A stretch of DNA of 20,000 nucleotides from an uncultured virus (IMG/VR IMGVR_UViG_3300045945_000056) (taxonomy: Duplodnaviria; Heunggongvirae; Uroviricota; Caudoviricetes). Shown here one piece after another: positions 2,712 to 15,187 of this stretch (positions within the stretch are counted from its first letter, which is position 1; every line of letters starts with the position of its first letter). The translations under genes were made by a program, and so were the position numbers. The stretch is taken from the IMG/VR virus record IMGVR_UViG_3300045945_000056; one strand, 5' to 3'. The notes under the pieces are model-generated. The model did not search any database. It was not told the DNA's origin and saw only the letters and a program-made list of their open reading frames with translations.

Positions 2712-4244
2712 ATGGCAACTTTAACTACTAATTTAAGCCTCGAAGATACACTTGGATTGTGTTACACTGATTTGGGTGTAATGAGTAAAACGTTCATGCC
2801 CCAAGCTTTCTCCGCTAGCTATTCTCCCCTTCATTATTCTGTAATTAAACACCTCGACTCACCCGCTAAGCAAATCGCTATTGCCGCACCTCGAGGTTTA
2901 GGTAAAACTTCCTTCGCTCGTGCTATGGTAATGCGCGCAATTTTATTCCGTCAATATGAGTTTATACTTTATGTCTCGAATAGTGAAACCGTGGCCGAAC
3001 TGCAAACAGAGAACATCAAGCGTGAGTTGCGGAGTAATCCCGAAATTAGGAAAATCTTTGGTGATATCGCTATTGCAGCAGACTCAGACGCGGATTTTTC
3101 TGAGACATTTTCTAAGCGCGCTTGGGTTGCTTTCGGTAATACATTGGTACTCCCGCGTGGTTCTGGACAGCAAGTGCGCGGATTGCTTTATAAACACGCC
3201 AGGCCACAGTTAATTATTATTGATGATTTGGAGAAACGTGATGAGTTAGAAAATCCGGAAAATCGACGCAAGTTAAAGGAGTGGTTTCATAGCGACTTAA
3301 TGAAATGTATTAATCGGTATGACAATAACTACAAGTTTATCTATTTAGATACGCTAAAACATAGCGATGCTCTTATGGAAGAGTTACTCAATTCGCCTGA
3401 GTGGGTATCAGAGCGGTTGGATATATGTACAGATACTGCAGAGGGTTTAGTATCTAATGTCCCCGAACTAATATCCACTCAGGAACTGCGCCGTGAATAT
3501 GAAATACATAAAGAAAATGGAACCCTAGATATATTTTACAGCGAGTTTCGTAATCTACCAATCGCTACTGAAAATCAAGGCTTTAGGCAGGAATATTTCC
3601 AACATTATTCAGAAAATCAGCTTGAAACTAAAAATCTAGAAAATTATATCATAGTTGATCCCGCGAAATCTGTGAATATGAGTTCGGCGGATTCAGCCAT
3701 TGTAGGAATTGGCGTAAATTTCCAAAGCGGCGCGATTTACATTCGTGATGTAGTGTCGCGTAAAATGTTCCCTGATGAATTGTATGCAGAAACGTTTGAT
3801 ATGAAGGTAAGACTCAATGCACACCAAATCGGAATTGAGGTTACGGGGCTGGAGGAATTTATTAAACAACCTTTTACCAATTACATGTTGGGACTCGATC
3901 CACGATTTAGCTGCGAACTTATTTGGCTCAAAGCTCGTGGCGGAGATCCGGGGGGTGATAAAGGAAAACTCAAACGAATTGGAACCTTGGCCCCTTACTA
4001 CCGAAAAGGCCACATTTATCATAATGCAACATGTACGTCCAAACTTGAAGGCCAATTGCTCAGTTTTCCTAAAGGCAAATTGGTGGACGTCGCAGACGCT
4101 ACAGCGTACATCATCGAACTTTTGGAACTCGGAGGTCGATATTTCACTTCGCCTGATGAAGTGATTGATCCTACGGGGGAAGATGAATTTGCCCAATTAG
4201 ATTATGAAGGAACAGGTACACTTTCGCGGTATCAGAGGATTTAA
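2712..4244 (+). CDS. terL: Terminase large subunit
   Basis: Walker A APRGLGKTS, VRG motif, Walker B LIIIDD, C-terminal RNase H-like nuclease motifs (IIVDPA...ADSA, IGIE, FPKG..VDVADA); GAGG SD. Confidence 0.95.
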   Translation: MATLTTNLSLEDTLGLCYTDLGVMSKTFMPQAFSASYSPLHYSVIKHLDSPAKQIAIAAPRGLGKTSFARAMVMRAILFRQYEFILYVSNSETVAELQTENIKRELRSNPEIRKIFGDIAIAADSDADFSETFSKRAWVAFGNTLVLPRGSGQQVRGLLYKHARPQLIIIDDLEKRDELENPENRRKLKEWFHSDLMKCINRYDNNYKFIYLDTLKHSDALMEELLNSPEWVSERLDICTDTAEGLVSNVPELISTQELRREYEIHKENGTLDIFYSEFRNLPIATENQGFRQEYFQHYSENQLETKNLENYIIVDPAKSVNMSSADSAIVGIGVNFQSGAIYIRDVVSRKMFPDELYAETFDMKVRLNAHQIGIEVTGLEEFIKQPFTNYMLGLDPRFSCELIWLKARGGDPGGDKGKLKRIGTLAPYYRKGHIYHNATCTSKLEGQLLSFPKGKLVDVADATAYIIELLELGGRYFTSPDEVIDPTGEDEFAQLDYEGTGTLSRYQRI

Positions 4245-8144: not shown

Positions 8145-9029
8145 TAATTCTAGCGCATGTAAAACCGCTTAAAATCAGGGGAAGTCCTATTGGGATAATC
8201 CTGAGCCAATCCGATACGGAAGGTGCAACGACTATGAGTGATACGAGCTTTGAGGCGTTAATTACTATGACGATAGCAGCGGAAGCGTTCAATATAAAAG
8301 AAGTCACCGAAGCAATTTACTGGATGATCTTAGGTGATGGCCATGTGGAGAAACCGGAACGAGGTAATTGTAAATTATCCGTTTCTCATACGGTAGATCA
8401 CACGGATTATCTTATGTGGAAAGCTGCAATTATTGACCGCTTCACTGGATTTAGTATAAAAGAGCAAAATACGAGCGAATCATCCTTGAATCACTATGGA
8501 CGAAAACAGATGTTACGTCTTCGCTCCAGTGCTCATCCGTGGTTTACTAAGATACGAAATAATTTGTATCTTAGCGGACAGAAAACGATGAGTAAACACG
8601 CTATTTCTATACTAGGTCCAATTGGATTAGCTATACTCTATCAAGATGATGGCACACTTTCTACTACTAATAGTAGAAACCAAGCCGATAGAAATGTGCT
8701 AATTTATACGCTGAACCATAGTATATTTGAGTTGGAAGCTTTTACCAAACATGTGGTGGATAAATTTGGAATTATATTTAGAATTAACGCCACTCCCGGT
8801 AAGGGCCAAGGATTTCGATTAAGATTGCGAAATAAAGATATTGAAACTTTTTTCGCTTTAATCGAACCATATGTAGTTCCCTCAATGCTCTATAAACTCG
8901 GAAGAGGCGGCGATAGCGATACGTCTATCGGTAATATAGTCTGGGCTTCTTGGCAACAAGAAGAGGCGAGCAGAAATGACTCGTCCCCTGCGAGTAAAGG
9001 TTGGGAAACTCGTAGGAGTAACAATTCCG
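8145..9029 (+). mobile_element. Group I intron (885 nt) with homing endonuclease, in the major capsid gene
   Basis: P1 CATGCGT/GCGCATG with U8144-G8153 wobble; P3 CCGCTT(8165-70)/AGGCGG(8905-10); P4 TCAGG(8175-79)/CCTGA(8200-04); P7 GACTA(8230-34)/TAGTC(8937-41); P8 CGATAG..CTATCG(8911-30); P9 CTTCTTG-GCAA-CAAGAAG(8946-63); P9.1 and P9.2 stems; terminal G9029. Confidence 0.93.
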
Positions 9030-9052
9030 GGAACCGGCAACTGGGCACCTGA
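8267..9052 (+). CDS. Intron-encoded two-motif LAGLIDADG homing endonuclease (I-SceI-like)
   Basis: Motifs AIYWMILGDGH and GLAILYQDDGT, C-terminal LIEPYVVPSMLYKL; ATG 8267 has GAGG at 8252-8255 (the track starts it at 8234, inside the P7 region). Confidence 0.88.
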   Translation: MTIAAEAFNIKEVTEAIYWMILGDGHVEKPERGNCKLSVSHTVDHTDYLMWKAAIIDRFTGFSIKEQNTSESSLNHYGRKQMLRLRSSAHPWFTKIRNNLYLSGQKTMSKHAISILGPIGLAILYQDDGTLSTTNSRNQADRNVLIYTLNHSIFELEAFTKHVVDKFGIIFRINATPGKGQGFRLRLRNKDIETFFALIEPYVVPSMLYKLGRGGDSDTSIGNIVWASWQQEEASRNDSSPASKGWETRRSNNSGNRQLGT

Positions 9053-10304
9053 CGAAAGACCTTTGAACTGGCGCCAAGGAATTTTGTACCTTTATCCAAA
9101 CGGAAGGGCGCCGTTAACTGGCTTACTTTCGAAGATGGGAGAAGAAACTACTACTGATCCCCAATTTCATTGGTGGACGAAGAATTTGGCGCAACAGGGC
9201 GGAGCAATTACCGAACTTTATACGGATGCTGCAATGACTACCGCGCTGGCTGCTGGCGGTTCTGCCGCGGGTACACTTTTGTACGCAAAAGTTGCGCAAT
9301 TACTCGCAACTGAATTTCGAATTGGACATCAAGTTTTACTTCGGGTTTCGACAAATCTTAATGTTGATGTAAATGCGAAAGTAACTGGAGTTACACTTAA
9401 TGGTGCAGATTCACAAATTGCGGTGAAATTGCTCGAAGCAGACGATAATGGTGGTGCGACTAACCTTTCGACTGCGGATGTAATCTTGATCGTGGGTAAT
9501 ATTAACGCTGAAGGTGCGGCTATTCCAAACGCAATTGCTTACGATCCGATAAAGTATTTGAATTACACACAAATTTTTCGTACTCCACTCGATATTACTC
9601 GCACTGCAAGGAAAACGACACTTCGCACCGAAGACGCGTATAAAGAGGCGAAGCGTGAATCGCTTGAACTTCATTCAATTGAAATGGAAAAGGCGTTTTT
9701 GTTCGGCATACCAACAGAGAATGTTGGCTCGAATGGTAAACCAGAACGTACTACGGGTGGATTGACTTATGCGGTAAAACAGTTTGCACCACAAAATGTA
9801 TCGGATTATAGAGTAGATCCAAACTATGCAACTATGGATTGGCTTACTGGTGGCGAAGCGTGGTTAGATGAGAAATTTGAGCTTATTTTTCGATTTGGTT
9901 CGATGGATAAAATTGCATTTGTTGGTTCGGGGGCACTTTTGGGTATAAATAAGTTGGCTAAAAACGTGGGCCAATTTAATTTTACACCGCAAACTACTTC
10001 GTATGGAATTAAAGTGGTAAATTGGGTAACGCCGTTTGGAACTATTAGTCTATGGACACATCCGCTGTTCAGTTATGATGCTACAACGCGGAATGCTATG
10101 CTTATCTTCGAAGCGAGTATGTTGAAGTATCGGTATATCGATGATACTATGTTTATGGGAATGGATACAAATAAAGTTAGTCCATCGCATGAGAGACTTG
10201 ATGGAACTAAGGAGGAATGGCTTACGGAATGTGGACTAGAATTTCACCATCCGATTAAATTTGGATATTTAAATGGGGTAGGGTTAGATAATACTTTACC
10301 TTAG
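9030..10304 (+). CDS. Major capsid protein, exon 2 (SU10/DUF5309-like; spliced product 431 aa)
   Basis: NGRAPLTGLL, NYTQIFRT, EMEKAFLFG, RTTGGL and TPFGT motifs typical of this capsid family; position after the scaffold gene. Confidence 0.9.
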   Translation, partial: GTGNWAPDERPLNWRQGILYLYPNGRAPLTGLLSKMGEETTTDPQFHWWTKNLAQQGGAITELYTDAAMTTALAAGGSAAGTLLYAKVAQLLATEFRIGHQVLLRVSTNLNVDVNAKVTGVTLNGADSQIAVKLLEADDNGGATNLSTADVILIVGNINAEGAAIPNAIAYDPIKYLNYTQIFRTPLDITRTARKTTLRTEDAYKEAKRESLELHSIEMEKAFLFGIPTENVGSNGKPERTTGGLTYAVKQFAPQNVSDYRVDPNYATMDWLTGGEAWLDEKFELIFRFGSMDKIAFVGSGALLGINKLAKNVGQFNFTPQTTSYGIKVVNWVTPFGTISLWTHPLFSYDATTRNAMLIFEASMLKYRYIDDTMFMGMDTNKVSPSHERLDGTKEEWLTECGLEFHHPIKFGYLNGVGLDNTLP

Positions 10305-10349
10305 GCCCCCCTGCCCCCCACACGGAATATAATTTCCGTTGGCGCGGCG

Positions 10350-10371
10350 GAATTAAAATTTAAACGATGGA
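10350..10371 (+). promoter_or_regulatory. 22-bp intergenic motif, copy 5
   Basis: GAATTAAAATTTAAACGATGGA, running into the GGAGG SD of 10386. Confidence 0.7.
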
Positions 10372-10385
10372 GGTTAATTTACTTT

Positions 10386-11117
10386 ATGCCCTTGTTGGAT
10401 ATACGTAAGAGGTTTGTCGAATTTACTGGCCGGTGGGATTTAATTACTGATGATGAGAGCTTTCGCGATAAAGGAGCGAACTTTCTCATCCAAACCGGCC
10501 AGAAGTGGTTAGATCGCCAAGCTGAAGTAGCGTTTGGTGAAGGCAAGAGTTATTTGGATTTACCTGCTAATAGTTGGTTTGCTATGTTAAACAATTGCCG
10601 GAGCGTGAGATATGTGTTCTTGTCTAACGCTGAGGGAGAGAGGTGGCCCCTATACCGAAAAGATTATCCAGAAATCAGCGAATTGCGATTGCGTGACCCA
10701 ACTTTTGTTGAATCCGGATGCCCTAAGTATTACGCGCTTGCGAATATTCATACGCATCCTGAGACAATTGGGACAACTACAATTGCACGATTTGGACCTA
10801 CAACGAGTTATACTGCAGCTGGAAATCCGTGGGGTTTTAATGCAATAATCGTTGCCCCAAAACCAAGTGAAAATTTGTTAATTGAGGTGCAAGGTTTATT
10901 CTTTCAACCTGAACTGGTCGCTGATGGCGATCAGAATGTGTGGAGTGAAGAGTACCCGTTCATACTTGTTTTAGCTGCGTGTCGTCAACTCGAAATTTCG
11001 TATCGTAATACTTCTGGAGCTAGTGATTGGGAGAACGCGATTAACGCCGAATTGCTGACGCTCGGATTTGATTTAGTAGATCAAATTAGTAACGATATTA
11101 CCCAAATAAAGGGGTAA
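10386..11117 (+). CDS. Probable head-tail adaptor protein (243 aa)
   Basis: Follows the capsid gene; SGCPKYYA, IIVAPKP and DQNVWSEEYPFILVLAAC patterns resemble podovirus adaptor proteins. Confidence 0.65.
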   Translation: MPLLDIRKRFVEFTGRWDLITDDESFRDKGANFLIQTGQKWLDRQAEVAFGEGKSYLDLPANSWFAMLNNCRSVRYVFLSNAEGERWPLYRKDYPEISELRLRDPTFVESGCPKYYALANIHTHPETIGTTTIARFGPTTSYTAAGNPWGFNAIIVAPKPSENLLIEVQGLFFQPELVADGDQNVWSEEYPFILVLAACRQLEISYRNTSGASDWENAINAELLTLGFDLVDQISNDITQIKG

Positions 11118-11119
11118 AC

Positions 11120-11296
11120 ATGAGCGAGACTAGAACATACAACCCAATTCCGAGCGGTAAACCGCCGGTTAAAGAGTCGAAGTCGAAGACTTCGAGCGAA
11201 CCGAGTATGACAAAGCGTGGTAATACTGATAAGCGCGATGGAGGTACATTTATGGAGAGTCGCGCCAAGAAGAATGGCGCAAGTAATCCGGGGTAA
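11120..11296 (+). CDS. Small basic low-complexity protein (58 aa, MSETRTYNPIPSGKPPVKESKSK...)
   Basis: ATG 2 nt after the upstream stop, AAGGGG SD; below the ORF-track size cut-off. Confidence 0.6.
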   Translation: MSETRTYNPIPSGKPPVKESKSKTSSEPSMTKRGNTDKRDGGTFMESRAKKNGASNPG

Positions 11297-11299
11297 GGT

Positions 11300-11321
11300 T
11301 CCACTGATTAAATTTTAATTC
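11300..11321 (-). promoter_or_regulatory. 22-bp intergenic motif, copy 6
   Basis: - strand GAATTAAAATTTAATCAGTGGA; 11301-11321 is the exact reverse complement of 2148-2168. Confidence 0.75.
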
Positions 11322-11343
11322 GGAGAGTGTTAGCGTGTTTAAG

Positions 11344-11531
11344 TTTACGCACCATTCCATTTTTTCTGGTTTGGAATTTAGCATCACTTTGACAGATTGC
11401 TCCCAGTTCCCGTGCACAGCTTCCATCTGGACGGGCAGCGGAGCTGGACGTCGCCTTGCTTGCTGTGCACGCAATCTGTCAAAGGAATTATGCTAAATTC
11501 CAGGAGCCGGAAAAAATGTTTGGTGCTTAAA
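11344..11531 (+). ncRNA. Long imperfect hairpin, candidate structured ncRNA
   Basis: Nested helices GCACCA/TGGTGC, CATTTTTT/AAAAAATG, TGGAATTTAGCAT/ATGCTAAATTCCA, TTTGACAGATTGC/GCAATCTGTCAAA, GTGCACAGC/GCTGTGCAC. The inverted repeat is directly visible; RNA function is inferred. Confidence 0.6.
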
Positions 11532-11549
11532 ATAAGAGGAGAATGGAAA

Positions 11550-11726
11550 ATGCCTTACAAAGTATCCAAAACTAAAAAGGGTGATTATGAAGTTCGCTCA
11601 CCTCATGGCGTAAAAGCTAAACACACAACTAAAGCTAAAGCTAAAGCCCAACAACGGTTGCTTTATGCTATCGAAGAAGACCCTGATTTTATTCAGCGTA
11701 GAAAGAAAAAGAATGGTATGGATTAA
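11550..11726 (+). CDS. Small basic protein (58 aa, MPYKVSKTKKGDYEVRSPHGVKAKHTTKAKAKAQQRLLYAIE...)
   Basis: AGGAG SD at 11537-11541 before ATG 11550; the track's extension to 11397 runs through the hairpin and is probably spurious. Confidence 0.75.
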   Translation: MPYKVSKTKKGDYEVRSPHGVKAKHTTKAKAKAQQRLLYAIEEDPDFIQRRKKKNGMD

Positions 11727-11750
11727 AATTGCAAATCGGAGATTTGCAAA

Positions 11751-12089
11751 ATGATTACTCCAGAGGAACGCGCTGAACTTACGCGTGAAATAACCGAGCA
11801 TGTTTTATTATTACTTCCAGGAGTAATAGCGCATTTAATTAACAACATGTCTACCATGAAGGAGTTATCAAATCAATTTTACGAGCAACACAAAGATTTA
11901 GTTAAGCATAAAGAAACTGTTGGGACGGTAATAGAGCAGCTTGAAATTAAGTACCCTGGTAAATCTGTACAAGATTTATTGGATCTTGCTGCGCCTGAAG
12001 TGCGTAAATTATTATCCCAACAAAGTAAATTAGCCTCTGCGCCAAAAATGGGCGTTGAACAACTCGATAAAGTTTTGGGGAATTTATGA
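11751..12089 (+). CDS. Hypothetical helical protein (112 aa)
   Basis: GGAG SD within a hairpin; ATGA overlap with the next gene. Confidence 0.75.
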   Translation: MITPEERAELTREITEHVLLLLPGVIAHLINNMSTMKELSNQFYEQHKDLVKHKETVGTVIEQLEIKYPGKSVQDLLDLAAPEVRKLLSQQSKLASAPKMGVEQLDKVLGNL

Positions 12090-12583
12090 GAGAATTTGCC
12101 GTAGTATTTAAGGAAGGTTTAGCGCGGGGCCTGCGCGCAAGTGAGCACAATCCGCGGAACGAGGAGTTTTTGTATGTTGCTAAAGGATGTATACCGGAAG
12201 ATGGTGTTCTACAATCCTTGCCGGTTTTGCATAACACATTTGGATTGCCCGAGCAATGCCAATTCCCTTTTCCGCAAGTTTTTGTGTTACGTCAAATTGT
12301 ATTGGTCTTTACACAAACGCGTATTTATGAGCTACGATCGTTCGGGACCGAGCAAGTATTTCAAGATGCTCCTGCTGGTAGCACTTGGACTGTCGCCGAT
12401 TTTGGGGATTATATTTTGTGCTGCAACGGTCGTATACTTGTATATCGTGATCCTGTAACTGGAATGTTTACAGAATATATTGATTGTGAAATACCGCCGG
12501 GTACATGTATTATGAATTTAAATGGGCAGTTAATTGTAGGTTCACCTGGCGAAGTAGTTGGTACTGGATTTACCGGAGAATAG
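12086..12583 (+). CDS. Virion protein resembling the N-terminal part of a nozzle/head-closure (P22 gp10-like) protein
   Basis: GLARGLRA...NP.N...G.L start followed by beta-propeller-like blades (WTVADFGDYILCCNG, IMNLNGQLIVG). Confidence 0.5.
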   Translation: MREFAVVFKEGLARGLRASEHNPRNEEFLYVAKGCIPEDGVLQSLPVLHNTFGLPEQCQFPFPQVFVLRQIVLVFTQTRIYELRSFGTEQVFQDAPAGSTWTVADFGDYILCCNGRILVYRDPVTGMFTEYIDCEIPPGTCIMNLNGQLIVGSPGEVVGTGFTGE

Positions 12584-12584
12584 T

Positions 12585-12606
12585 TCCACTGTTCAAATTT
12601 TATTTT
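12585..12606 (-). promoter_or_regulatory. 22-bp intergenic motif, copy 7
   Basis: - strand AAAATAAAATTTGAACAGTGGA, 1 nt after the TAG ending at 12583. Confidence 0.6.
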
Positions 12607-12631
12607 CGTTGAAATTTCGGAGAAATTTCAA

Positions 12632-15187
12632 ATGTGGAAAATGTTAAATAATGGCGTATGCCCACCTCCGCCACCAAAAGTGTTTGGTTTTGTTACTGGT
12701 GATGCGGGTGATGGGGGCATGCAGATGGCCATAGATAATGCTGGACGAGTTTATGCGTGGGGTGCCACATCTTATGGTTACAGTGGACAAACGCCTATAT
12801 CCATCACAGGAACGTCTAATTTTTGGCGGCATCCGGATACGTATTATGAAACTGCAACACCAGGTAATTATCATCCGGCAACTTTAAAGCCTATTCAAGT
12901 TGGAACTAAATCAGATTTCGTTAAATGTAGAATGGGAGAAGATTTTTATACCGCGCTAGATTCTGAAGGATATTTATGGGGATGGGGTATGCCGTGGAGT
13001 TTTGGTTTAGGTGGATGGAATGATACTGCACAATATACTGGCAATGGTTATCCGCCTACTCCATTTACTCCTGGTGGTAGGCACGCCATAACGCCGCAAC
13101 GATTGTTTGATGTTGTGTGGAAAGATTTTATAAATGGTCAATATCATATGATTGCAATAAAACCTGATGGTTCACTTTGGATTTGGGGTAAGAATTTAGA
13201 TGGCACAACTTTTGGTAATAATACTTATGCTGAAGATTATGTATCTTTAGTTCCGATTGAAATGACGTGGGTGCCTGGTCCTGTAAAACTTGTTGCGGCT
13301 TATTGGAGTGTTACTGCCATAGTTACAGAGAGTAATCAAATTTGGATTTGGGGTGAGTGGTGGATTGCGGAATGGGGAGTGAATGGTTCTGTCGCGGCGC
13401 CAATGCAATTACCTTTAACTGTGCCCACGGGCGTGCAGATAACGCAGATTAGTTGTAGCTATTCTGGCGTGGTAGTTTTATTATCTAATGGCGATGTTTA
13501 CGCCGCAGGATATTGGTTTGGATTTAGCTCAACTTATACTACTGTACTTACCAAAGATCCTACTGGACGACATTTTGTACAAATTGATGTGGGGGAAACT
13601 GGCGCAGCGGGAGTGGATATAAATGGAAATATTTATGGTTGGGGAAGTGCTTCGTTTTTAATTTATCAACCTGGTTGGGTAGAGGATACTGTTGAAGTTT
13701 TACCTACACTAACCCAACCTGGACCGCAATATACTCATGTAAGTGTAGGCTACTGGTTTCATCAGGCTATAGATACCGAAGGTAGATTGTGGACTTGGGG
13801 ACGAAATGAGGATGGGGCGCTTGGTGTAGATGAGAAACAAACGGATTTACTTTATAGTTATCTTGCTGTCGAAGCAACTTATTTTGCGGAACTTGATGAT
13901 GGTACGCGAGCAATAGATGCTCCCGGTGTTGGACCAGCGGCACTACAATTTACTCTTGATTCGCCTGAGCAACTTAGCGAGCATAATCCATGCGGACATT
14001 GGCATAAGAAGGCAGTGGGTGCGCCAGGGTTTCGTATAGATATACCGAAATGTTGCTGGAATTTTGCTGTAGATGTGCGTGGCACTGATGTAATGTTATA
14101 TGGTCTTGGTATAAATTATCCGTGTCCAGTTATACCCCTTCGTTACAATATTAGTACGCGCCAATGGTATGGGCCTTATTGGCAAATAGAGAAGTTTTAT
14201 ACACGCGAATGGCTTGCGGGAGCAAGTATTAGTGGTGCTTTCGATGGACTTATGATGTATGGTGGAGATGATGCGGGCATATTAGGTTCGCCTAGTGTAA
14301 CAGGACATCGCATAGTAATTAAGACAGCGTATCATAATACCGGTGCAATTTATGAGCGGTTATTTCCGAGTGCGCGGCCACAAAATTGCGAAGGTAAGAT
14401 CGTTGTAGAAGACACCACCGGCAAAGTTATGGTATTAATCGAAGTAGGTACGAATATTGAATTGTGGTTATCTACGGATTATGGTAATACATACACTTTA
14501 GGCGAAACATGGGCGTTTGGTACAGCATATAAATATGCCAGAATAGTACGCAGTGGAAGCAACTATTACGTGAGCATATTTAGATCGGATGGTACATCCA
14601 ACGGTAGTATAACTACTTATTCTTCGACTGATGGTCTAACGTGGACCTCGAAGGCAATTATAAGTACACCTATCGGCAGTGCCAGGTTCAATATGTGGAC
14701 GGATAGTAACACGATTTATTTGCTGTGTTATGATAGATTGTTTTATAGCACGGATGGCGCAATGACATTTACTAGTAAAACAATGACGGGAATTACGAAT
14801 CATGGTTTTGCTAATGGAAGCACGTTTGATGCGACTATGTTCTATGCAGTTAAATTGCAAGGTACAGTGGATTATACGTTAAGTACCATAGTTTGGTTTG
14901 ATTTACCTGTAGCTGTGTTCGAGCATTATGAACTAACTGATTTTACTACTACACGTAACTCAGGCGATTACGGTGTGTATATGCGGGATAATTTATTTCT
15001 ACCTTTTGGTGCTACAACACGAATTGTATTACCGGTTACACAGGCACTAGGCACGCAATGGGAATTGGTGCAGACACCGCTGATTTATTTTAAAGAACCA
15101 ATAGATTCTTTGCATGGTGAGGATGATCCACGTTGGCGTTTTTCTCCAACGCGAGATAAAATTCCGCTTGATCCGCAATACAGATGA
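12632..15187 (+). CDS. RCC1/BLIP-II-repeat protein with C-terminal BNR/Asp-box region (851 aa)
   Basis: Repeated blades GRVYAWG, GYLWGWG, GSLWIWG, NQIWIWG, GDVYAAG, GNIYGWG, GRLWTWG; Asp-boxes STDYGNTY, STDGLTW, STDGAMTF. Confidence 0.85.
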   Translation: MWKMLNNGVCPPPPPKVFGFVTGDAGDGGMQMAIDNAGRVYAWGATSYGYSGQTPISITGTSNFWRHPDTYYETATPGNYHPATLKPIQVGTKSDFVKCRMGEDFYTALDSEGYLWGWGMPWSFGLGGWNDTAQYTGNGYPPTPFTPGGRHAITPQRLFDVVWKDFINGQYHMIAIKPDGSLWIWGKNLDGTTFGNNTYAEDYVSLVPIEMTWVPGPVKLVAAYWSVTAIVTESNQIWIWGEWWIAEWGVNGSVAAPMQLPLTVPTGVQITQISCSYSGVVVLLSNGDVYAAGYWFGFSSTYTTVLTKDPTGRHFVQIDVGETGAAGVDINGNIYGWGSASFLIYQPGWVEDTVEVLPTLTQPGPQYTHVSVGYWFHQAIDTEGRLWTWGRNEDGALGVDEKQTDLLYSYLAVEATYFAELDDGTRAIDAPGVGPAALQFTLDSPEQLSEHNPCGHWHKKAVGAPGFRIDIPKCCWNFAVDVRGTDVMLYGLGINYPCPVIPLRYNISTRQWYGPYWQIEKFYTREWLAGASISGAFDGLMMYGGDDAGILGSPSVTGHRIVIKTAYHNTGAIYERLFPSARPQNCEGKIVVEDTTGKVMVLIEVGTNIELWLSTDYGNTYTLGETWAFGTAYKYARIVRSGSNYYVSIFRSDGTSNGSITTYSSTDGLTWTSKAIISTPIGSARFNMWTDSNTIYLLCYDRLFYSTDGAMTFTSKTMTGITNHGFANGSTFDATMFYAVKLQGTVDYTLSTIVWFDLPVAVFEHYELTDFTTTRNSGDYGVYMRDNLFLPFGATTRIVLPVTQALGTQWELVQTPLIYFKEPIDSLHGEDDPRWRFSPTRDKIPLDPQYR

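Follow-up and report, generated by a model that had tools for sequence, protein, structure and literature searches.

What does a long, rod-shaped inverted repeat do between two small genes of a phage virion operon, and does it work as RNA, as DNA or only for its own spread? The question was raised by positions 11344 to 11531 of an uncultured Caudoviricetes virus (IMG/VR record IMGVR_UViG_3300045945_000056), of which a stretch of 20,000 nt was analyzed, referred to here as the window. A first-pass annotation, made from the sequence without database searches, had proposed an undescribed phage noncoding RNA, ribozyme, RNase III substrate or decoy RNA with an internal pseudoknot, possibly bound by the basic proteins encoded on either side. 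We find that the long hairpin is a real, structure-conserving, lineage-specific element. The view of it as an undescribed element holds; what that first description lacked is that there are three copies, that they travel together with a promoter-like motif and that they are missing from relatives.

Gene setting of the hairpin

The window covers the late (virion) module of the phage, with PHROG matches to a large terminase, portal/adaptor, a LAGLIDADG endonuclease ORF, the major head protein and tail proteins. The major head protein is 48.6% identical to its closest GenBank relative. The hairpin, copy 1 of the family described below, is located 1 kb after the major head gene, between two 58-aa genes. 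The upstream one (s58a, 11120 to 11296, plus strand) has a codon score of 0.23, like other real genes, and homologues at 78% (L009/L026) and 46% (L029). It is followed by a reversed copy of a 24-nt promoter-like motif (11299 to 11325, minus strand), in which 24 of 25 nt equal the reverse complement of 2144 to 2168, by a spacer (11326 to 11344, plus strand) listed together with a GGAG at 11322 to 11325 and a GTG at 11335, and by the rod hairpin itself (11345 to 11530, plus strand). An alignment with the empty site of the relative L009 delimits the next segment (11527 to 11549, plus strand), which holds an AT-rich remnant (TTAAAAT), the Shine-Dalgarno (SD) sequence GAGGAG at 11534 to 11539 and the spacer to the start of the downstream basic 58-aa gene (MPYK, 11550 to 11726, plus strand). 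This SD lies outside the hairpin, leaving a gap of about 3 to 7 nt from the hairpin end. The setting is thus the one given by the first-pass annotation, with flanking 58-aa ORFs, a motif copy just before and an SD just after the element, and with the motif copy in reversed orientation.

The MPYK protein, which has 10 homologues and carries no family assignment, is 64 to 72% identical among phages, compared with ca. 40% for its neighbours (window 11550 to 11726; loci L029, L031 to L033 and L068 to L096). In L029 it reaches 72%, against only 40% for the neighbouring p243, and the gene occupies differing positions of the module in different phages. Two small hairpins, TTGCAAATC-GGA-GATTTGCAA at 11729 to 11749 and GAAATTTC-GGA-GAAATTTC at 12611 to 12628, expose a GGAG in the loop directly before a start codon (11751 and 12632, respectively) and may represent a recurring design for starts, with the SD in the loop. 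An inverted repeat inside the 112-aa gene (11918 to 11932 with 12008 to 12022) has a stronger counterpart in L009 (3168 to 3184 with 3256 to 3272; 17 nt, 94%) and may be a conserved structure within coding sequence. The LAGLIDADG endonuclease ORF (8234 to 9052, Pfam E 7e-22) separates the 104-aa gene from the major head gene, whose listed start it overlaps. Since in L009 the head gene comes directly after the 104-aa gene, this ORF is another lineage-specific insertion.

Fold and integrity of copy 1

Folded as RNA (ViennaRNA), positions 11344 to 11531 form one rod of 69 pairs with a minimum free energy (MFE) of -94.5 kcal/mol. None of 200 dinucleotide shuffles was as stable (mean -49.8, z -10.84), and all the helices listed in the first-pass annotation were recovered at the positions it gave. 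The rod is interrupted by TTC/TT, by a GG bulge, by CA/GAATT and by an 11-nt bulge on the 5' side (11401 to 11411, plus strand), and it is capped by a GC-rich apical domain of 41 nt. The helix GTGCACAGC/GCTGTGCAC surrounds this domain (11412 to 11470, plus strand), within which the MFE structure forms an apical hairpin, pairing 11430 to 11433 with 11449 to 11452 and 11436 to 11439 with 11443 to 11446 (plus strand). The minus-strand RNA reaches -84.9 kcal/mol, so that the plus strand is better by 9.6 kcal/mol. This agrees with the earlier choice of the plus strand as the folded RNA, which had been argued from G-U pairs; in the MFE structure 2 of the 69 pairs are of this type (11367/11509 and 11370/11506), with the U always on the 5' arm.

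The sequence of copy 1 is identical across the three IMG/VR contigs containing the region and in Logan contigs from four runs, and all sampled words of the stretch are present in 13 soil runs; therefore, the hairpin is not an assembly artefact. Neither an element-less variant nor joints appeared in the Logan contigs of the four runs, in which uncovered parts and contig breaks at the apex do not count as evidence.

A family of three copies

Extension of the window by 10 kb at each end along its 91-kb contig brought out a second copy (L099 7456 to 7627), ca. 2.5 kb upstream of window base 1. With copy 1 as its only input, a covariance model (R1; core 11349 to 11526, plus strand) matched copy 2 with 77 bits (E 2e-17) and, in a search of 67 sources (372 kb), also found a third copy with 26 bits (E 4.7e-4). 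Copy 3 is located at L101 5213 to 5381, equivalent to G003 13363 to 13531, on a contig that overlaps the same phage. The model had no match beyond copies 2 and 3 in the 372 kb of related loci, and only the known copies were found in 138 kb of G002, G003 and G004. Copies 2 and 3 also fold into rods (-92.6 kcal/mol, z -8.4, and -97.8 kcal/mol, z -10.1, respectively), and the length of the rod across the copies is 167 to 178 nt.

The 13-mers CATTCCATTTTTT and AAAAAATGTTTGG at the termini are identical in copies 1 and 2, as are the outer helices, and the GCAC...GTGC ends are retained in copy 3. The inner stems of copy 2 are unlike those of copy 1 in sequence and still self-complementary. In a model-guided alignment of these two copies, 94.5% of the cells are standard pairs and both sides have changed at 22 of 66 pairs, a number that none of 500 shuffles reached and that compares with 0 to 2 in slid controls. 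Homologues with compensatory changes, on which the first-pass annotation had made its RNA candidate depend, thus exist, as paralogues and not as orthologues. The covariation is drawn from two or three paralogues in an alignment fitted to the model, and equal counts would result from a palindrome-symmetrising process at the DNA level. It is the apical hairpin of the MFE structure, and not the alternative of the first-pass annotation, that is conserved in copies 1 and 2, with two compensatory changes. The 5' strand GCACAG of the helix around the apical domain is kept in all three copies; just before it, all three have extra bases on the 5' side, as the 11-nt bulge in copy 1 and, at that position in copies 2 and 3, as mini-hairpins. 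An indel in one arm of the hairpin has its mirror image in the other.

Copy 3 shares its strand with the genes on either side, a 269-aa and a 1,728-aa one, and stops 15 nt short of the SD of the larger gene, which is left uncovered. The small genes flanking copy 2 are on the opposite strand, with the hairpin antisense to them; read in the direction of the genes, the order there is stop (L099 7628), hairpin, forward motif, SD and ATG (7417). The 1,728-aa ORF directly downstream of copy 3 (L105, G003 8149 to 13335, minus strand) matched only a PHROG of unknown function; its product could be an internal or ejection protein of giant size.

Over its first 3,320 nt, G003 matches the region upstream of the window with 100% identity; the rest of it equals G004, a related phage without motif or hairpin. 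From these overlaps we infer that the three copies belong to one phage of ca. 45 kb, all in one absolute orientation, and that the 91-kb contig joins two related phages. Both the 91-kb and the 64-kb IMG/VR contigs (those behind L098/L100, G003 and G004) look like joins of two related phages of ca. 45 kb, with a junction at a shared stretch of ca. 0.6 kb (window 19837 to about 20463, 98.9%). The structural genes of G004 show 62 to 80% nucleotide identity, and the CheckV completeness of 100% for G003 may be misleading. At ca. 0.9 to 1.1 kb upstream of window base 1 (L098 10936 to 11150) there is a gene-poor stretch with ca. 47 uninterrupted T, flanked by a 33-nt imperfect inverted repeat (GATAGCTCAAAAAAC.../...GTTTTTTTGAGCTATC), which could be origin-like or a sequencing oddity.

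The adjoining 24-nt motif

In three of three copies, the reversed motif is found 10 to 27 nt 5' of the hairpin. Its consensus is about CGAATTAAAATTTTAACACTGGAG, also written CGAATTAAAATTT[T/A]A[A/T]C.. TGGA, with a palindromic TTAAAATTTTAA core and a GGAG at the end. The window contains 11 matches compared with 1.4 expected (no shuffle out of 200 reached 11), and 13 sites are found in the 40 kb assembled around it: window positions 2149, 4293, 7478 (minus), 10351, 11307 (minus), 12592 (minus), 15191 and 18096, together with five more in the 10 kb upstream (L099). Since most copies have the orientation of the genes and precede a start codon by 10 to 20 nt, the motif looks like a phage promoter or initiation signal, as far as its sequence and placement indicate. 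It is loosely reminiscent of the 23-mers of T3/T7-type phages. A consensus scan found no good sigma-70 -35/-10 pair at the motif, and PF00940 (T7-type RNA polymerase) was unmatched in G001 to G004, as were the search's own controls. The related phage G004 has no motif copy. The giant hairpin occurs at only 3 of at least 13 motif sites, and short stem-loops of 6 to 7 bp precede some motif copies (4294, 10352 and -8834). Beside the hairpins the motif points away from the rod; at copies 1 and 3 its direction is opposite to that of the operon.

Relatives and wider searches

In the only close relative (L009/G002, with the neighbour protein at 78% aa), the same two small genes are separated by a gap of 22 nt with a forward motif and the SD. 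The spacer between its 269-aa and 1,728-aa genes, 195 nt long, carries a forward motif but forms no rod (MFE -63.3, z -1.8), and the hairpin is thus absent from G002 at both of the junctions that could be checked. The gap is 34 nt in the more distant L029, which has both small genes, and in 28 further loci the MPYK homologues mostly abut the upstream gene, with no comparable inverted repeat. With the MPYK protein occurring in so many loci without such an upstream hairpin, the suggestion that the flanking basic proteins bind it finds no support. The empty junctions of the relatives indicate a lineage-specific gain of ca. 230 nt that comprises the reversed motif, the spacer and the hairpin. Since the relative thrives with both of these junctions empty, whatever the hairpin does is dispensable or confined to this lineage.

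Exact-pattern scans with inner-arm and outer-stem patterns, which diverged copies would escape, returned only the three identical contigs from IMG/VR and five chance loci from 185,579 species genomes, none extending past the pattern and three of them membrane-protein-like by eye. BLAST of the element gave no match among GenBank phages and a single 32-nt match among plasmids (E 0.6), which is noise. A scan of metagenomes for the 243-aa neighbour returned the known relative alone. In 37 plus 31 related loci, self-BLAST showed no comparable inverted repeats; as copy 3 came out only second within its own locus, this method is poorly suited to bulged rods, and the R1 search is the better negative.

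At the gathering threshold, Rfam had no matches in the 20-kb window and none in L099 plus L101, and a relaxed scan of 11250 to 11620 gave only E values of 3.3 and 8.8, both outside the hairpin. The comparison with Rfam proposed by the first-pass annotation therefore matched no described family, and its ribozyme option is unsupported, with no Rfam match on the hairpin. A terminator scan found no terminator-like site at the hairpin, and all copies lack a U-tract on the 3' side, so that none is a canonical intrinsic terminator. Integron attC sites are 57 to 141 bp long with RYYYAAC/GTTRRRY ends. They were considered because conserved ends, a variable paired middle and extrahelical bases are common to attC and the hairpin, and they were set aside, as the hairpin ends do not fit by eye and no integrase was seen. 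A retron msr/msd, a protelomerase target and an invertible switch were also discarded, with the partner gene missing from the available DNA and the centre not palindromic.

Transcription and strand preference

When the three copies were compared, the sense RNA exceeded the antisense RNA in stability by about 10 kcal/mol in copy 1 (-93.0 versus -83.4) and copy 3 (-94.8 versus -84.3), and the two strands were equal in copy 2, the one lying antisense (-87.8 versus -88.4). A sense preference in the sense copies with equality in the antisense copy is the pattern expected if pairing is selected in the transcript. The tally of pairing types over the three copies was 9 G-U versus 4 A-C-type positions, which are small numbers.

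Contigs of two metatranscriptome runs cover 11285 to 11435 and 11471 to 11652; they are identical to the window and bridge the upstream gene with the hairpin and the hairpin with the downstream gene. They are consistent with co-transcription, with the reservation that DNA carry-over is possible and that such contigs do not prove transcription, ends or strand. The RNA-library depths (2.3 to 5.5) were similar to those of the neighbouring genes, and such depths rank nothing. The structure also has what is expected of an RNase III processing site of the T7 type, imperfect double-stranded RNA of at least ca. 20 bp, here a predicted 69-bp rod with internal loops, between co-oriented genes. Judged by this predicted fold, the RNase III substrate among the options of the first-pass annotation is a live reading.

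Possible roles of the element

With a probability of about one in two, we favor a three-copy, lineage-specific hairpin-plus-motif cassette of which copy 1 resides in the operon mRNA as a processing, stability or attenuation hairpin. The cassette would consist of the reversed 24-nt motif, a spacer of 10 to 27 nt and a rod hairpin of 167 to 178 nt, and this lineage would have acquired it at tight gene junctions where the motif was already present. It probably spread through recombination at the palindromic core of the motif, by analogy with what has been proposed for the PeSL cassettes of T4-type phages. Copy 1 would be transcribed within the late polycistronic mRNA and form a long imperfect double-stranded hairpin just upstream of the next SD. 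Its action there would most likely be in cis, either on processing or stability between cistrons or by attenuation, the options being an RNase III-type target, an exonuclease barrier and a brake on read-through. The expected result is that expression of the downstream genes is set apart from that of the upstream ones; an attenuator would divide abundant head genes from low-copy genes downstream. Since copy 2 is antisense to its flanking genes, one strand-specific RNA function does not fit all three copies.

The same three dispersed copies with conserved termini, present or absent relative to G002 at two of two junctions and with indels mirrored on both arms, could also represent a selfish palindromic mobile cassette (MITE- or foldback-like) that has no function for the phage and whose arms are kept complementary by hairpin-templated repair or copying. 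The constant vicinity of the same AT-rich palindromic motif is what a target preference would give, and the terminal inverted repeats are conserved among the copies, as in a MITE. However, there is no target-site duplication at any copy and no direct repeat abuts the hairpin ends in any of them, a MITE would come in many copies with a transposase, and here we found only three copies, no transposase and no further copies (none with the two exact patterns in IMG/VR and only the five chance loci in the 185,579 genomes). The insert starts 47 nt to the left of the copy 1 hairpin, so that the ends of the hairpin are not those of the insert. In addition, covariation in the mid-stems contrasts with sequence conservation at the apex and in the GCACAG helix, a pattern that resembles functional constraint, and the sense strand is favored in copies 1 and 3. 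A selfish origin is for these reasons possible, on the unlikely side.

Somewhat more doubtful is a new class of structured phage RNA, a rod of ca. 170 to 190 nt with a conserved branch on the 5' side, the GCACAG/CUGUGC helix and the apical hairpin. Such an RNA would have its origin at or beside a 24-nt promoter motif of its own and, through recognition by a phage or host protein (e.g., RNA polymerase, RNase III or a small basic protein), would switch or partition the expression of late genes; within the genome it would spread as a self-contained promoter-plus-RNA module.

It seems improbable that the element works at the DNA level, as a hairpin or cruciform beside an AT-rich unwinding motif, used for initiating or priming replication, for recombination or as the recognition site of a phage protein. 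Copy 1 does fold strongly as DNA (-56 kcal/mol, z -10.2), each copy adjoins the palindromic AT-rich core, and the three copies have one absolute orientation whatever the direction of the genes, if the left 17 kb of G003 are colinear with the phage, as they appear to be. Nevertheless, the same orientation in three of three has a 1-in-4 chance, three origins or sites inside operons would be unusual, and the element is absent from the relative. Moreover, in copies 1 and 3 the G-U-type mismatches favor the sense RNA, a bias from which pairing as DNA would gain nothing.

A discrete trans-acting noncoding RNA, started at the adjacent motif, folded with a bulge-loop pseudoknot or with intermolecular pairing and serving as a decoy or as a target of phage proteins, is still harder to sustain. 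The palindromic motif core does precede the hairpin by 10 to 27 nt in every copy, and the polarity of the fold is conserved, with the model matching only the plus strand of copy 2. The complementarity between bulge and loop noticed in the first-pass annotation is also present in copy 1, with 8 bp instead of 7 (11403 to 11410 with 11440 to 11447; duplex -14.8 kcal/mol). However, 8 bp or more were obtained in 2.5 to 3% of the trials in which the bulge or the apical domain was shuffled (P about 0.025 to 0.03, before post hoc correction), the apical "loop" partner is largely paired locally in the MFE structure (CAGC/GCTG), and the apical fold of the first-pass annotation lies 6.2 kcal/mol above the MFE. 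In copy 2 the insertion is a mini-hairpin of its own with a GAA loop, and the complementarity is at most 3 bp at the positional homologue and 6 bp anywhere in the apical domain, typical of shuffles. The pairing is thus not conserved, and the proposed internal pseudoknot is not supported. Besides, no terminator follows the hairpin and Rfam has no match to it, while the RNA-library contigs run from the upstream gene (11285) into the hairpin and from the hairpin into the MPYK gene, at depths (2.3 to 5.5) like those of the neighbouring genes, though these rank nothing.

Finally, a 53-aa protein gene through the hairpin (11335 to 11496, plus strand, GTG 9 nt after GGAG), with the hairpin incidental, can practically be set aside: other genes that start after the motif have a similar SD-like GGAG and start spacing, but this ORF has no homologue in 5.8 billion clusters, not even as its own called gene, and no Pfam or PHROG family, copies 2 and 3 have the structure in common and not the reading frame, and its codon score of -0.10 is that of noncoding sequence (null -0.04 +/- 0.14, with 63% of 75 noncoding frames scoring as high), compared with 0.16 to 0.37 in 9 of 10 other ORFs and 0.01 in one 74-aa ORF.

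Comparison with known systems

The pRNA of phi29 is a phage RNA of ca. 170 nt with a bulge and a hairpin loop that are complementary, and the rod of copy 1 also has a bulge complementary to its apical region. It differs in the lack of an Rfam match and in a complementarity that is not conserved in copy 2; furthermore, this phage has an ordinary large terminase, and the element is found inside operons. In T7, promoters are paired with R sites (RNase III sites), and these sites are about three times shorter than the rods of this phage. RNase III processes hairpins of the T7 polycistronic precursor (PMC3867540). As in T7, the rods described here would be intercistronic imperfect double-stranded RNA with internal loops in long phage transcripts, in several related copies per genome and just before gene starts. 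As candidate processing sites, the rods have no sequence similarity to those of T7.

ERIC elements are intergenic palindromic repeats of bacteria. Correia elements (CREE) are dispersed intergenic palindromes of bacteria that form long hairpins when co-transcribed (PMC2649163). As in our case, elements of this kind are dispersed, have 100 to 190 nt, produce long hairpins upon co-transcription and vary in presence among relatives; some contain promoter elements, and RNase III can bind or cleave them (PMC2649163). However, they reach tens to hundreds of copies in bacterial chromosomes, against three in one phage, and Correia has a TA duplication (PMC2649163), whereas no target duplication is found here. 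Compared with those repeats, the copies of this phage are far more diverged in sequence, with pairing kept.

The PeSL of T4-type phages are composites of a stem-loop and a promoter in the gaps between stop and start codons, which recombine, mediate indels and terminate transcription (PMC2839356, PMC4122927). The likeness lies in a repeated stem-loop with a promoter-type motif in the short interval between a stop and the next SD/ATG (PMC2839356, PMC4122927) and in the fact that close relatives differ by indels at exactly such sites, as G002 does here by lacking the hairpin at two of two junctions (PMC2839356). In the orientation of its genes, copy 2 even has the order of PeSL: stop, stem-loop, motif, SD and ATG. 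On the other hand, the stem here is a rod of 167 to 178 nt with ca. 65 bp and not the short GC stem-loop depicted for PeSL, and in copies 1 and 3 the motif runs against the operon, which is not the depicted layout. The hairpin is found at only 3 of at least 13 motif sites, the putative promoter motif is not a sigma-70 -35/-10 pair, and the host genome is that of a podovirus-like phage of ca. 45 kb and not of a T4-type myovirus.

Cassettes of hairpin plus promoter are thought to drive gene gain and loss in T4-type phages (PMC2839356, PMC4122927). Here a comparable cassette logic is seen in a small soil phage unrelated to them, whose hairpin is unusually large and has stayed paired despite many double changes. 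Should the hairpins serve to process or attenuate late mRNA, they would be a simple and portable way of tuning the ratios of virion proteins, a regulatory RNA spreading as a cassette; if they are selfish, they would represent a rare palindromic mobile element living inside a phage genome. Under either reading, three copies together with a relative that has the empty sites provide a clean experimental system.
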